A stretch of DNA of 64,000 nt from Escherichia phage vB_EcoM_G4507. Made by a program: the position numbers and the translations under genes. The notes under the pieces are model-generated. The model searched no databases. It had not been told where the DNA came from and saw only the letters and a program-made list of their open reading frames with translations. The stretch lies in the sequence record NC_054919.1; one strand, written 5' to 3'. This document shows, piece after piece, positions 11,733 to 20,316 of the stretch; the first letter of the stretch is position 1, and every line of letters starts with the position of its first letter.

Positions 11733-11800
11733 GTTATCGAGTTGATGCCATTATATACATCATTTTCTGAGTATGTTTTGTGTGCTTTCAAAATGAAGAA

Positions 11801-11816
11801 AGGGGCCGAAGCCCCT
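11801..11816 (-). terminator. hairpin AGGGGC-UUCG-GCCCCU after hoc
   Basis: 6-bp stem with UUCG loop (minus-strand sense) 5 nt after the hoc stop. Confidence 0.55.
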
Positions 11817-11821
11817 TATGA

Positions 11822-13240
11822 TTATGGATAGGTATAGATGATACCAGTTTCTAAAGCAGTTTTATGAATGATGTATCCATTGCGTGATTCTTGAACATCA
11901 ACTTCTGGATAGTCTTTCATCATCTTCTGAAGAGTGTAACGATGCAGGTAGTATTTACTATCTGGATCTTCAGTTTTCCAATCTTTACCTTCTTCGGTCA
12001 TTTTTTGGATTTCATCCATAACCCACCAACCGCACCAGATATAAGCTGAAGTGCGATGTGGAAGAGGATGAACATAAGGCAATTCACCTTCTGGTTCCGG
12101 AGCAACTTTATCAGTTACCTGAACTTGGCCTGTTGCTTTAACTGTTTTACTATCATAGTCGGTTGCTGTAACGGTTGCAGTAACTTCAATAGTTTGACTT
12201 CCAATAGATGATGTATCAACCGTGTATACATTAGTTGATTCTTCTACAGGAGAAGAATCTTTCTTCCATGAATATTCGATTTGTGCTTCTTCTGGAGCAT
12301 CCGTAACATTAGCAGTAAATGTAGCCGAAGCATCTTGCTGAACGTTAATAGAAGGAGGAGTCAATGTAACCTGTGGATTCATTGTCTTCTTATTAACTGT
12401 TAATGATACTTCATTAGAAGTAACTTCCTTTTCATTGTAATTTTCAGCCGTTACTTGGGCTACGCATTTAATTCTTTTTACTCCACTTGTAGTTGGAGTA
12501 TAGTTAAATGTAGAGTTAGTTTCTCCACCAATTTGAGAATCATCTACATACCATTTATATGTAGCAGACGCTCCATCAGGTTGAGAAACCAAGGCAGCAG
12601 TAAATTGAACTGGGGTTCCAATTACTCCAGCTGGAGGACTATCAGGAGTTACTGCCAAGGTAGTTGTCTGCGTCTTTTTATTAACAGTCAGTGACACTTC
12701 ATTGGAAGTAACTTCCTTTGTATCATAATCTGTCGCGGTTACTTGAGCTACGCACTTAATTGTTTTAACTCCGCTTGCGTCAGGAGTGTAATTGAATGTA
12801 GTGCTAGTTGCTTCGCCCACAGGAGAACCGTCAACGTACCATTGATACGTAGCGTTTGCACCTGATGGCTGTGAAGCTAAGGCAGCGGTAAATTCAATTG
12901 GAGTTCCAATCACTCCAGCATCAGGGCTACCAGGAGTTACTGCCAAAGTAGTTGTTTGTGTCTTATTTTGAACTGTGATAGTTGTACTAATTTCAGCTGT
13001 TTCAGGTTCAGATTCTGCAACTTGATTGGTTGCAACTACTTTAATAGTCTTTTGACCGGCAGGTCCTTTTAGTACATAACTAAAAGTTGCTGACGTTTCT
13101 TCCTGTGGAGCGTCGTCTACAGTCCAAGCATATGTAATAGGTCCATCTCCAGTTTGACCACTGGGTGTAGCAGTAAACTGCTGAGTCTGATCTATAACTC
13201 CAGTAGGTGTTTTAGGAGTTATATCAACTGTAAAAGCCAT
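11822..13240 (-). CDS. hoc: highly immunogenic outer capsid protein Hoc, with four Ig-like domains
   Basis: 472-aa ORF; two adjacent ~96-aa modules (KTQTTTLAVTP...EVTSNEVSLTVNK) are near-identical; conserved C-terminal capsid-binding region; synteny. Confidence 0.9.
   Translation of the reverse strand: MAFTVDITPKTPTGVIDQTQQFTATPSGQTGDGPITYAWTVDDAPQEETSATFSYVLKGPAGQKTIKVVATNQVAESEPETAEISTTITVQNKTQTTTLAVTPGSPDAGVIGTPIEFTAALASQPSGANATYQWYVDGSPVGEATSTTFNYTPDASGVKTIKCVAQVTATDYDTKEVTSNEVSLTVNKKTQTTTLAVTPDSPPAGVIGTPVQFTAALVSQPDGASATYKWYVDDSQIGGETNSTFNYTPTTSGVKRIKCVAQVTAENYNEKEVTSNEVSLTVNKKTMNPQVTLTPPSINVQQDASATFTANVTDAPEEAQIEYSWKKDSSPVEESTNVYTVDTSSIGSQTIEVTATVTATDYDSKTVKATGQVQVTDKVAPEPEGELPYVHPLPHRTSAYIWCGWWVMDEIQKMTEEGKDWKTEDPDSKYYLHRYTLQKMMKDYPEVDVQESRNGYIIHKTALETGIIYTYP
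12389..12964 (-). repeat. tandem duplication of two ~288-bp units inside hoc (Ig-like domains 2 and 3)
   Basis: Protein residues 93-188 and 189-284 are near-identical; DNA units at 12389-12676 and 12677-12964 computed from the ORF frame. Confidence 0.7.
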
Positions 13241-13249
13241 AAGTTATCC

Positions 13250-13930
13250 TTATTTTAATGTTACGAAAGAAGAATTACGTGTTTCACGAATTAGAACTGA
13301 TCCGTCACGATTAATGTAGTAAATTAAGCTAAATAAAGTTTGGTGTGCCGACGCATGTTCAAAACTAGTTGGGTGAGATTTCCAATCTGGGGTTTCAGCA
13401 ATCCATTGATAAATCCACCAAGGAACAGTGCAGAATCCTGGATTTTTTCCAATCAGCTGAAGATTCGGACTAAAGTTTTCCGGAAGAGTAAATACAGACG
13501 GCTTTTCAGATTCAATAATCTCAGCTACAGCCTGTTCGAATTTTTCTTCAACAAAAGGAGTATCTTCAATTAAAACAGTGGTATTTTCAGGAATTTTATC
13601 CGTTTCTACTACTTCAATTTTAATGTCAGATTTAACCGGAGAATCAATCAGAAGTGCTGCCTCTGGATTGACTTCTTCATCGTCATATTTTAATCCGTCT
13701 GCGGCATCAGCAGCATCAATTAAGTCTTTAATAGATAACCCATCAGTCTCTGGCATAGGTTCACTAGCGAGCTTCTGGAGAGCTTCTTCAATATCATTAA
13801 CGATATTATCAAAAGATTTATTCTTTTTGACCTTTATACCAAACTGTTCAGCATATTCAGCTAATTTAGCTTTAGCTTCTTTATTATCATCAAGAGCCTT
13901 CAGCTCTGCAATATAATCTTTATCTATCAT
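13250..13930 (-). CDS. inh: inhibitor of prohead protease (Inh)
   Basis: 226-aa ORF directly downstream of hoc; length and position match T4 inh as recalled. Confidence 0.8.
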   Translation of the reverse strand: MIDKDYIAELKALDDNKEAKAKLAEYAEQFGIKVKKNKSFDNIVNDIEEALQKLASEPMPETDGLSIKDLIDAADAADGLKYDDEEVNPEAALLIDSPVKSDIKIEVVETDKIPENTTVLIEDTPFVEEKFEQAVAEIIESEKPSVFTLPENFSPNLQLIGKNPGFCTVPWWIYQWIAETPDWKSHPTSFEHASAHQTLFSLIYYINRDGSVLIRETRNSSFVTLK

Positions 13931-13979
13931 AATATTTCCTCAGTATAAATATAGATATATTTATTACTCGGAAAATAGT

Positions 13980-14597
13980 ATGTACCACTTTGTATATGAA
14001 ACAACAAATCTAATAAATGGTAAAAAGTATATAGGAAAACACTCTACTGATGACTTGAATGATGGTTACCTTGGTTCCGGTAAGGCAATTCAGCAGGCTA
14101 TAAAGAAATATGGTGAAAACAATTTCTCTAGAACAATACTAAAAGAGTTTAAAACTTCCGAAGAAGCGTACATGTATGAAGAAGAAATTATAACTCCTGA
14201 AATAATAAAAAGCAAAAATTATTATAATATGAAACCTGGTGGAATTGGTGGAATTGTTATGACTACAGAGGTTATAGCAAAGATGAAAGAATCTTCCGCT
14301 AAGAGATTTGAAAACTCACCGGGCACGGTATTAGGTACAACTTGTTACACTAATGGAACTAAAAATATTTTTATTAAACCTGGAGAACTTGTTCCAGAAG
14401 GATTTGTAAAAGGAATGGTTCATCCTAATAGAAAGTCCAGAAAAGGATGTAAAGTCAAACCGACTACCACAGGAACTTTTTGGGTCAATAACGGTGCAAT
14501 AAATAAATTAATACAACCAGACGGTATTATTCCCGACGGATTTATTAAAGGTCGTCTCATGAAAAGAGATTCTAAAGGCAAATTTAGTAAGGCATAA
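13980..14597 (+). CDS. segE: GIY-YIG homing endonuclease, seg-like (segE position)
   Basis: N-terminal GIY-YIG motif: HFVYETTNLINGKKYIGKHS...YLGSGKAI...E; 205 aa; sits between inh and uvsW on the opposite strand from its neighbours. Confidence 0.65.
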   Translation: MYHFVYETTNLINGKKYIGKHSTDDLNDGYLGSGKAIQQAIKKYGENNFSRTILKEFKTSEEAYMYEEEIITPEIIKSKNYYNMKPGGIGGIVMTTEVIAKMKESSAKRFENSPGTVLGTTCYTNGTKNIFIKPGELVPEGFVKGMVHPNRKSRKGCKVKPTTTGTFWVNNGAINKLIQPDGIIPDGFIKGRLMKRDSKGKFSKA

Positions 14598-14599
14598 TT

Positions 14600-16108
14600 A
14601 TGGATATTAAAGTACATTTTCACGACTTCAGCCATGTACGCATCGATTGTGAAGAGAGCACGTTCCACGAATTAAGAGATTTCTTTTCGTTTGAGGCCGA
14701 TGGATATAGATTTAATCCTCGCTTCAGATATGGCAACTGGGATGGACGAATCCGTCTTTTAGATTATAATCGTCTTCTTCCATTTGGCTTAGTCGGGCAA
14801 ATTAAAAAGTTCTGTGATAACTTTGGCTATAAAGCCTGGATTGACCCACAAATTAACGAAAAAGAAGAATTATCAAGAAAAGATTTTGATGAATGGCTTT
14901 CTAAATTAGAAATCTATTCAGGAAATAAAAGAATTGAACCGCATTGGTATCAAAAAGATGCAGTGTTCGAAGGATTAGTTAATCGTCGTAGAATTCTTAA
15001 TCTTCCAACATCCGCTGGTAAATCTTTAATTCAAGCTTTGCTTGCGCGATATTATTTGGAAAATTATGAAGGCAAAATTCTTATCATTGTTCCAACAACT
15101 GCTCTGACAACTCAGATGGCTGATGACTTTGTTGACTATCGTTTATTCAGTCATGCAATGATAAAGAAAATCGGCGGTGGAGCATCAAAAGATGATAAAT
15201 ATAAAAATGATGCACCGGTCGTTGTTGGTACATGGCAAACTGTAGTTAAACAACCAAAAGAATGGTTCTCACAGTTTGGAATGATGATGAATGATGAATG
15301 CCATCTTGCTACAGGAAAAAGTATTTCATCTATCATATCAGGTTTAAATAACTGTATGTTCAAATTTGGTCTATCTGGTTCATTACGTGATGGCAAAGCC
15401 AATATCATGCAGTATGTTGGAATGTTTGGTGAAATATTTAAGCCAGTAACGACTTCTAAGTTAATGGAAGATGGACAAGTAACTGAGCTAAAAATTAATA
15501 GTATTTTTCTTCGCTATCCCGATGAGTTCACTACTAAATTAAAGGGAAAAACTTATCAAGAAGAAATAAAAATTATTACGGGGCTTAGTAAAAGAAATAA
15601 ATGGATCGCTAAATTGGCTATTAAGCTTGCACAAAAAGATGAAAACGCTTTTGTCATGTTTAAACATGTATCACATGGTAAAGCTATTTTCGATTTAATT
15701 AAAAATGAATACGATAAAGTTTATTACGTATCAGGGGAAGTTGATACCGAAACCCGCAATATAATGAAAACCTTAGCTGAAAATGGTAAAGGAATAATTA
15801 TAGTAGCTAGTTATGGTGTATTTTCTACTGGTATTTCAGTTAAAAATCTGCATCACGTTGTTTTAGCGCACGGTGTTAAATCAAAAATCATTGTATTACA
15901 AACAATCGGTCGTGTATTACGTAAGCATGGTTCTAAAACAATCGCAACAGTCTGGGACCTCATAGATGACTGTGGTGTCAAGCCAAAATCTGCTAATACT
16001 AAAAAGAAATATGTTCACTTGAACTATCTTTTAAAACACGGCATTGATCGTATTCAGCGCTACGCAGATGAAAAATTTAATTACGTAATGAAAACAGTTA
16101 ATTTATAA
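14600..16108 (+). CDS. uvsW: UvsW RNA-DNA/DNA helicase
   Basis: 502-aa ORF with Walker A PTSAGKS and DExH box MNDECH; synteny. Confidence 0.93.
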   Translation: MDIKVHFHDFSHVRIDCEESTFHELRDFFSFEADGYRFNPRFRYGNWDGRIRLLDYNRLLPFGLVGQIKKFCDNFGYKAWIDPQINEKEELSRKDFDEWLSKLEIYSGNKRIEPHWYQKDAVFEGLVNRRRILNLPTSAGKSLIQALLARYYLENYEGKILIIVPTTALTTQMADDFVDYRLFSHAMIKKIGGGASKDDKYKNDAPVVVGTWQTVVKQPKEWFSQFGMMMNDECHLATGKSISSIISGLNNCMFKFGLSGSLRDGKANIMQYVGMFGEIFKPVTTSKLMEDGQVTELKINSIFLRYPDEFTTKLKGKTYQEEIKIITGLSKRNKWIAKLAIKLAQKDENAFVMFKHVSHGKAIFDLIKNEYDKVYYVSGEVDTETRNIMKTLAENGKGIIIVASYGVFSTGISVKNLHHVVLAHGVKSKIIVLQTIGRVLRKHGSKTIATVWDLIDDCGVKPKSANTKKKYVHLNYLLKHGIDRIQRYADEKFNYVMKTVNL

Positions 16109-18394: not shown

Positions 18395-19144
18395 ATGGCA
18401 AACATTATTCGTTGTAAATTACCAGATGGTGTTCATCGTTTTAAACCATTTACGGTAGAAGATTATCGAGATTTTTTGTTAGTTCGAAACGATATAGAGC
18501 ATCGGTCACCACAAGAACAAAAAGAAATAATTACTGATTTAATTGATGATTATTTTGGAGACTATCCGAAGACTTGGCAACCATTTATATTTTTGCAGGT
18601 ATTTGTAGGTTCAATAGGTAAAACTAAAGTACCAGTCACATTTGTATGTCCAAAATGTAAAAAAGAAAAGACAGTTCCATTTGAAATATATCAAAAAGAA
18701 TTAAAGGAACCTATTTTTGATGTAGCTAATGTTAAAATTAAATTAAATTTTCCTTCTGAGTTTTATGAAAATAAAGCAAAGATGATTACTGAAAATATTC
18801 ATTCTGTTCAAGTAGATGAAATGTGGTATGATTGGAAGGAAATTAGTGAATCGAGTCAAATAGAACTTGTTGACGCCATCGAGATAGAAACATTAGAAAA
18901 AATTCTCGATGCAATGAATCCTATTAATTTAACATTGCACATGTCGTGTTGTGATAAGTACATTAAAAAATACACTGATATAGTAGATGTGTTTAAGCTA
19001 TTAGTTAATCCAGATGAGATATTTACTTTTTATCAAATTAATCACACGCTTGTAAAAAGTAATTATAGCTTAAATTCAATAATGAAAATGATTCCTGCCG
19101 AGCGCGGATTCGTATTAAAACTGATTGAGAAGGATAAACAATAA
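18395..19144 (+). CDS. 51: baseplate hub assembly catalyst gp51
   Basis: 249-aa ORF; AAGGAG Shine-Dalgarno; synteny 51-27-28-29-48-54. Confidence 0.88.
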
Positions 19145-20316
19145 TGAGTATGTTGCAACGCCCCGGATATCCAAATCTCAGCGTTAAATTATTTGAGAGT
19201 TATGACGCTTGGAGTAATAATAGATTTGTTGAATTAGCTGCTACTATTACCACATTAACTATGCGGGATTCTCTTTATGGTCGAAATGAAGGAATGCTAC
19301 AATTTTATGATTCTAAAAATATCCATACAAAAATGGATGGAAATGAAATAATTCAGATTTCTGTAGCTAATGCAAACGATATTAATAATGTTAAAACAAG
19401 AATTTATGGATGTAAGCATTTTTCTGTATCTGTAGATTCAAAAGGTGATAACATCATTGCTATTGAATTGGGAACTATTCATTCTATAGAAAATCTTAAA
19501 TTTGGTAGACCATTTTTCCCTGATGCAGGTGAATCTATAAAAGAAATGCTTGGTGTCATTTATCAAGACCGCACATTATTAACTCCAGCAATAAATGCTA
19601 TAAATGCTTATGTTCCTGATATTCCATGGACTAGCACATTTGAAAACTATTTGTCATATGTAAGAGAAGTTGCTCTAGCGGTAGGAAGCGATAAGTTCGT
19701 ATTTGTATGGCAAGACATCATGGGAGTTAACATGATGGACTATGATATGATGATAAATCAAGAACCATATCCAATGATTGTAGGTGAGCCAACTTTAATA
19801 GGTCAATTCGTCCAAGAATTGAAATATCCATTAGCATATGATTTTGTTTGGTTGACTAAATCAAACCCGCATAAACGTGATCCAATGAAAAATGCTACTA
19901 TCTATGCTCATTCATTTTTAGATTCTTCATTACCAATGATTACTACAGGAAAGGGTGAAAACTCTATTGTAGTGTCAAGGTCAGGTGCTTATTCTGAAAT
20001 GACTTATAGAAATGGATATGAAGAAGCTATTCGTCTTCAGACTATGGCGCAATATGACGGCTATGCTAAATGTTCTACTGTCGGTAATTTTAACTTGACT
20101 CCTGGCGTTAAAATTATTTTTAATGATAGTAAAAACCAATTTAAAACAGAATTTTACGTTGATGAAGTTATTCACGAATTATCAAATAATAATTCCGTAA
20201 CTCATCTATATATGTTCACTAATGCAACGAAACTGGAAACAATCGACCCAGTTAAGGTTAAAAATGAATTTAAAACTGATACTACCACTGAAGAAAGTAG
20301 TTCTTCCGATAAGTAA
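19144..20316 (+). CDS. 27: baseplate hub protein gp27
   Basis: 390-aa ORF coupled to gene 51 (ATGA overlap); synteny. Confidence 0.93.

Follow-up and report, generated by a model that had tools for sequence, protein, structure and literature searches.

Tandem Ig-like modules in a common long allele of Tequatrovirus hoc: a probable ancient duplication with recurrent in-register loss

The hoc gene of Escherichia phage vB_EcoM_G4507 is, very probably, a common long allele of Tequatrovirus hoc, in which two anciently duplicated modules, termed here A and B, lie within a mosaic region and from which a module is recurrently lost in register. The window referred to throughout is the whole stretch of DNA that was analysed, 64,000 nucleotides of sequence record NC_054919.1, and positions are counted from its first letter.

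Domain layout of the window Hoc

The hoc reading frame occupies positions 11822-13240 on the minus strand and comprises 472 codons and a TAA stop (11822-11824). A phmmer search matched its product to T4 Hoc (PDB 5vf3_Z, 376 aa) with E = 5e-221, and on this sequence match we identify the product as Hoc; the ORF list and the match together confirmed the position, length and identity given for the gene in an earlier note on this DNA. The alignment is collinear in two stretches, residues 1-124 and 189-472 of the query, so the window protein corresponds to T4 Hoc plus 96 residues. Plus-strand ORFs of 51-79 aa that lie inside hoc were treated as spurious antisense frames.

T4 Hoc consists of three domains that are Ig-like and, at the C terminus, a non-Ig domain that binds the capsid (PMC10385173). 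In the window protein, Ig-like domain 1 (aa 1-92; 12965-13240, minus strand) aligns with T4 Hoc 1-92 and is modelled as an all-beta block at residues 1-91 with a pLDDT of 81-94. It is followed by module A (aa 93-188; 12677-12964, minus strand), the first of two Ig/PKD-like modules of the domain-2 type, located by the repeat described below and by stretches matching the Pfam PKD and Ig_2 families. Module B (aa 189-284; 12389-12676, minus strand), likewise located by the repeat, is the second of this type and the counterpart of the single domain 2 of T4. Ig-like domain 3 (aa 285-377; 12110-12388, minus strand) aligns with domain 3 of T4 Hoc, with Ig_3 and I-set matches at aa 289-374 and a pLDDT of about 90. 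The chain ends with a linker and the capsid-binding domain of the C terminus (aa 378-472; 11825-12109, minus strand), which is near-identical to T4 Hoc 282-376, with few substitutions only. The Pfam domains found across the protein were PKD, Ig_2, PKD_3, Ig_3 and I-set, the best PKD stretch falling at aa 195-267, within module B.

An AlphaFold2 model built with 23 homologues as input contains four successive all-beta blocks, at residues 1-91, 93-187, 189-283 and 285-376, with pLDDT values of about 85-95, followed by a poorly modelled C-terminal domain (pLDDT <55). The top PDB matches in Foldseek were four-Ig chains, namely Dscam1 Ig1-4, Sidekick-2 Ig1-4 and ICAM-5 D1-D4, at E values near 1e-13. 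The model and these matches support an architecture of four Ig-like domains and a capsid-binding domain, in agreement with the earlier note, which had counted four against the three of T4. The tandem duplication of an Ig domain, also proposed there, is borne out by the 288-nt repeat and by the gap of 96 residues in the T4 Hoc alignment; the module that was copied is that of domain 2. Since the C-terminal domain was modelled poorly, capsid binding is assigned from its sequence identity to T4; by homology with T4 Hoc, one copy would sit at the centre of each gp23* hexamer through this domain (PMC10385173).

The window gene thus resembles that of T4 in its position between inh and 24.3/rnlB and in domains 1, 3 and the capsid-binding domain, which are collinear at 85-90% nucleotide identity. 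It differs in having a module A upstream of the B-type module, giving four Ig-like domains instead of three and 472 residues instead of 376.

Divergence of the two copies

Tandem Repeats Finder placed a repeat with a period of 288 nt, 2.0 copies and a score of 694 within hoc, and a second repeat search gave the same pair. The repeat is far beyond chance. The copies lie at 12389-12676 and 12677-12964, exactly in codon register and with the ends KTQTTTLAVTP...SNEVSLTVNK, just as the earlier note had placed them. The same note had called the two modules nearly identical, and this description does not hold. Modules A and B are identical at 219 of 288 nucleotides (76.0%) and 74 of 96 amino acids (77.1%), and the 69 nucleotide differences are distributed 15/14/40 over codon positions 1/2/3. 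By the Nei-Gojobori method (NG86) dN is 0.15, dS 0.99 and dN/dS 0.15, with synonymous sites saturated. The longest exact run common to A and B is the 16-nt TTGGCAGTAACTCCTG, at 12931-12946 (minus strand) in A with its twin at 12643-12658 in B. Taken as a test of a recently expanded, slippage-prone repeat, these values describe copies that are not near-identical in DNA.

Comparison between alleles gives a relative age for the duplication. The first modules of different alleles are 83-96% identical in nucleotide sequence, whereas the modules inside one gene are 74-80% identical, with dS values of 0.55-1.33; for the remainder of hoc between the same alleles dS is 0.10-0.37. At the protein level, among 29 two-module proteins, the first module averages 79% identity to the second module of the same protein and 88% to the first modules of the others. 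Positional orthologues are therefore closer than the modules within a gene, which places the duplication, or duplications, before the divergence of the extant alleles. Judged from these sequence comparisons, A and B probably arose by an ancient tandem duplication. No young duplicate was present in any gene examined. The earlier note had implied a recent expansion; with a dS of 0.99 and positional orthology across alleles, what was found is the ancient duplication that the note itself had set against its reading.

Three module types, A, B and C, are defined by the three-module genes, and each of the eight proteins with three modules has them in the order A-B-C. Where there are two modules, an A-like one mostly comes first and a B- or C-like one second; the window hoc is A-B and that of phage pSs-1 is A-C. 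Module A of the window has 92% amino acid identity to the A-type consensus of the three-module Hocs, and the single domain 2 of T4 is mainly of the B type, with 88.9% nucleotide identity to module B against 77.8% to module A. Painting the modules by A-, B- and C-diagnostic residues revealed pervasive mosaicism. Two further proteins, P0046 (472 aa) and P0052 (567 aa), have a T4-like domain 1, first module and C-terminal domain, together with added modules that are much more divergent (for example AVEIGTATTFTANVSNQP...). The sequences of these extra modules suggest that they may have been imported from more distant hoc lineages.

Distribution of the four-Ig form among relatives

The window hoc is 100% identical in nucleotide sequence to that of vB_EcoM_G4500, and to that of G29 apart from a 55-nt duplication discussed below. 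A 1419-nt hoc at 90-96% identity is found in dozens of other records, from phages of Escherichia, Yersinia, Shigella, Salmonella, Hafnia, Serratia and Proteus. Within an evenly spaced sample of 60 out of 677 matching phage records, hoc spans 1419-1474 nt in 16 and 1131-1133 nt, the T4-like length, in 35, the rest being other forms or distant relatives. Form was judged here by the span in the record and the proportion is a rough one; BLAST coverage counts join out-of-order pieces into one place and so cannot separate the one-, two- and three-module forms. The four-Ig form is an ordinary allele class, carried by about a quarter of the sampled Tequatrovirus records, and the expansion described in the earlier note is not an unusual one.

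Splitting the homologues at the module boundaries showed that Hoc proteins of 376, 472 and 568 aa contain one, two and three modules of exactly 96 aa, so the variation in domain number that the note had anticipated does occur among relatives; proteins of 568-570 aa were also among the matches of the protein search. The 119 listed clusters that could be split comprised 80 with one module, 31 with two and 8 with three, in a list ranked by score that favours the long forms. Several other 472-aa Tequatrovirus Hocs (G4500/G29, G9062, PYps14T, ime09, pSs-1, Isf-Pm2 and others) have the same architecture as the window and are annotated as 'Hoc-like head decoration' or 'PKD domain protein'; some, pSs-1 for example, differ in being A-C where the window is A-B. 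Searches of IMG/VR matched 20 loci, mostly from distant relatives. One contig (L004) encodes a Hoc 100% identical to that of the window within a 3.6-kb neighbourhood of 99.75% nucleotide identity.

That members of the Hoc family vary in domain number has already been described (PMC10385173, PMC11853027). Homologues with one to ten Ig-like domains have been reported (Fokine et al. 2023, PMC10385173), as has a two-Ig variant (Fu et al. 2024; PMC11853027). In full-text literature searches we found no paper describing a four-Ig Tequatrovirus Hoc or a duplication of domain 2. The Hocs of PNJ-9, UGKSEcP1/2 (568-570 aa) and Serratia phage Muldoon have two, five and ten Ig domains, respectively; unlike in these comparisons, the number here shifts by one in-register 96-aa module type among very close alleles.

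Repeat number also varies by recombination in the tandem-repeat surface adhesins of bacteria, such as streptococcal Alp/Rib and staphylococcal SasG/Aap. Like Hoc, these are projecting surface fibres of tandem beta-sandwich modules with a copy number that varies between strains. Their repeat units usually differ little in DNA sequence and change in number at high frequency, whereas the Hoc modules are 24% diverged and the deletion junctions lie in microhomologies of at most 16 nt.

Some records depart from these forms. In four Tequatrovirus records hoc is divided between two or more CDS. It spans 1418 or 1420 nt in three of them (MZ501066, MZ234018 and OR887633) and 1419 nt in OP555982; these are frameshifts, which may come from sequencing errors or, hoc being non-essential, from genuine pseudogenisation. 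The 32-kb record MG010123.1, named 'Staphylococcus phage SAJK-IND', contains a T4-type four-Ig hoc at 18685-20103 that is 94% identical to that of the window, and is probably mislabelled or contaminated.

Loss of single modules

Five one-module alleles equal the window hoc minus exactly 288 nt, removed in register at a single junction that is different in each. The clearest is that of phage 107 (OQ599309), a complete isolate genome with 0 mismatches over 1131 nt, in which the junction lies in the 8-nt run GCTGCCTT (12879-12886, minus strand, in A; twin at 12591-12598 in B). Allele P0061, from the Logan public read-archive assembly ERR13324457, also has 0 mismatches over 1131 nt and has its junction in ATTGGAAC (12903-12910, minus strand, in A; twin at 12615-12622 in B). 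In P0085 (Logan ERR12864205; 1 mismatch over 1131 nt) the junction is the 16-nt run TTGGCAGTAACTCCTG, and in P0074, from a human gut metagenome (ENA; 4 mismatches), it is AAGAC at the module boundary, with all of A kept. The fifth, P0091 (ENA metagenome and Logan SRR13789663), has 11 mismatches, all in domain 3, and a junction in CAAGTAAC (12738-12745, minus strand, in A; twin at 12450-12457 in B). Every junction sits in a run of 5-16 nt common to A and B.

A wider comparison at the protein level identified 20 shorter alleles, 19 with one module and one with two, that differ by no more than 6 aa from a longer allele with 96 aa taken out; the two-module one among them is equal to a three-module allele without its third module. 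Among the alleles examined there was no instance of module gain, only loss and shuffling. The suggestion in the earlier note that the repeat is a substrate for slippage or recombination therefore stands for loss, with five 288-nt deletion alleles of which two have no mismatches, and not for gain. Parsimony points to deletion from the longer allele as the direction of change. Phage 107, P0061 and P0091 are internal hybrids that could also have been produced by equal crossover between A-only and B-only derivatives. P0074 and P0085 each need an unequal event and the three hybrids may not, which sets the number of independent recent losses at a minimum of two and a maximum of five. T4 is known to undergo deletion between short direct repeats; what appears modestly new here, on the aligned alleles, is the clean, recurrent and natural loss of one module from this allele at the level of microhomology.

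Phage 107 can also be compared with the window over a longer region (11822-14740). Identity is 99.4% from within module B to the end of the region, with hoc 100% identical bar the deletion, against only 95.9% over inh and the opening part of hoc; this difference places a recombination mosaic boundary close to hoc. A smaller repeat lies within domain 3, where 2.1 copies of the 12-nt unit GTTACTGCAACC at 12160-12184 (minus strand) encode VTATVTAT (aa 353-360). One VTAT unit is missing in P0009 (468 aa, 99% identical) and in P0119 (372 aa), a small length polymorphism of the slippage type.

Alternative origins of the second module

The values given above bear directly on a recent, phage-specific and slippage-prone tandem duplication with near-identical copies, which we regard as very improbable. 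As such an event would leave them, the two 288-nt units lie head to tail, perfectly in register and with their ends conserved; against this stand the 76% nucleotide identity, the dS of 0.99, a longest exact run of 16 nt and the presence of A-B with orthologous modules in dozens of diverged alleles from seven phage host genera. The divergence of A and B together with the orthology of modules across alleles led us to reject it. Mis-assembly of the repeat, creating either the extra module in this genome or the shorter 'deletion' alleles elsewhere, is scarcely plausible either. Tandem repeats are a classic source of such errors, and the G29 record contains what may be an artefact of contig joining. 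However, with 69 differences in 288 positions and no run above 16 nt, a de Bruijn assembler with k of at least 21 cannot collapse the copies or jump between them, and collapse is not credible because the common runs of A and B never exceed that length. The 1419-nt form moreover occurs in many isolate genomes of independent origin; of the junction alleles, that of phage 107 belongs to a complete isolate genome and the others trace to four independent samples.

The G29 hoc (MK327940, contig L002) is the window hoc with a blunt 55-nt tandem duplication of gene nucleotides 355-409, at 1855-1909 of L002 and corresponding to window positions 12832-12886. The duplication shifts the frame of the gene, for which two CDS are annotated. 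Microhomology is absent at the junction, and the length, 55 nt, is a k-mer size often used by assemblers; the duplication resembles an untrimmed contig join. It also begins at the first base of GCTGCCTT, the deletion junction of phage 107. A 55-mer of this kind is the de Bruijn node expected if some genomes had a junction of B-prefix and A-suffix at GCTGCCTT, which is a hint of heterogeneity within the stock. Such a junction would be the gain product reciprocal to the deletion in phage 107, and the position of the G29 duplication would fit it.

A further possibility is that the second module came from unequal recombination between one-module A-type and B-type alleles in mixed infection, so that multi-module genes are fusions of alleles. 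T4-type phages recombine very actively, the module region of hoc is highly mosaic, and near-pure one-module alleles of each type exist (P0105 and P0074 for A, P0083 for B, P0096 and P0067 for C); the much more divergent extra modules of P0046 and P0052 also suggest import. The constant order of modules speaks against fusion, being A-B-C in 8/8 three-module proteins and mostly A-like then B- or C-like in two-module proteins. In addition P0085, the B-only allele nearest to the window, keeps A-type bases at module offsets 6, 9 and 18, which indicates that it derives from A-B and is not a parent of A-B, and loss explains equally well the pure one-module alleles whose flanks do not differ from the window. 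On balance we consider this origin unlikely, and favour an old A-B duplication followed by repeated loss.

Gene neighbourhood

The neighbours of hoc are an inh homologue (226 aa) upstream and, downstream, ORFs of 71 and 92 aa homologous to 24.3 and 24.2 and an RNA ligase 2 gene (334 aa). The order inh - hoc - 24.3 - 24.2 - rnlB matches that in the records of T4, G29 and phage 107. A hairpin resembling an intrinsic terminator, AAGGGGCTTCGGCCCCTT, followed by a T-rich tail, lies at 11800-11817 (minus strand), 5 nt past the hoc stop, and the G29 record has a terminator annotated at this site. Upstream of hoc and of inh the minus strand has no exact TATAAATA late promoter; a near-match, AATAAATA, occurs upstream of inh only.

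Between inh and uvsW lies an ORF for a GIY-YIG homing endonuclease similar to segD (13980-14597, plus strand), with TATAAATA at 13944-13951 (plus strand). The ORF is present in T4 and absent in G29, G4500, phage 107 and the metagenomic contigs L004, L027 and L028. In G29, phage 107, L027 and L028 uvsW abuts inh, and the alignment of L004 to the window ends at the same point. The closest record across hoc, inh and the GIY-YIG gene is G10400, at 97.3%, and no record is identical across all three. Co-conversion by the endonuclease could contribute to the mosaicism of hoc.

Discussion

The window Hoc would be a capsid-anchored fibre built, in order, from Ig-like domain 1, module A, module B, Ig-like domain 3 and the conserved C-terminal domain. 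We propose that Tequatrovirus hoc alleles draw on the old module types A, B and C, used in that order and in one to three copies per gene. In-register recombination or replication slippage at common runs of 5-16 nt would repeatedly drop one module, despite an identity of 76%, and the outcome of such loss would be a Hoc of T4 length with a pure or hybrid module. Exchange of segments among modules and alleles would then produce the highly mosaic region. More tentatively, and with some doubt on our part, the domain-2 array might behave as a natural cassette array of A, B and C modules, constantly reshuffled in one to three copies, altering the length and surface chemistry of the fibre so often as to be polymorphic within single populations, and allowing a contingency-like tuning of adherence or of escape from antibodies.

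The literature agrees with the earlier note that Hoc is a projecting capsid fibre, implicated in adherence to mucus and cells (PMC10385173, PMC11150434, PMC11853027). The extra module would be expected to lengthen this fibre by one Ig domain. The Hoc of PNJ-9 is reported to bind the fucose of MUC2 through residues S183/L184/T185 of domain 2 (PMC11853027), and an SLT motif occurs in the window Hoc at aa 183-185 and again at aa 279-281. By analogy, the added module may provide a second domain-2 surface that includes the S-L-T motif, and a longer fibre with a second surface would alter the reach or avidity for mucin or cell-surface glycans. In PNJ-6 MUC2 was bound by domain 1 and not domain 2 (PMC11150434), so a second domain-2 module need not change binding.

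T4 nanoparticle vaccines have Hoc as their main platform for display, and in the model of how phages adhere to mucus Hoc is the adhesin. Our understanding of what Hoc is remains unchanged. For engineering, the losses described here suggest that inserts placed between diverged repeats can still be lost, and for comparative genomics they bear on how differences in hoc length are read. They may also bear on the choice of therapeutic phages by mucus-binding reach. Natural Tequatrovirus Hoc exists in interchangeable forms of three, four and five Ig domains, from which modules drop out cleanly at short homologies.
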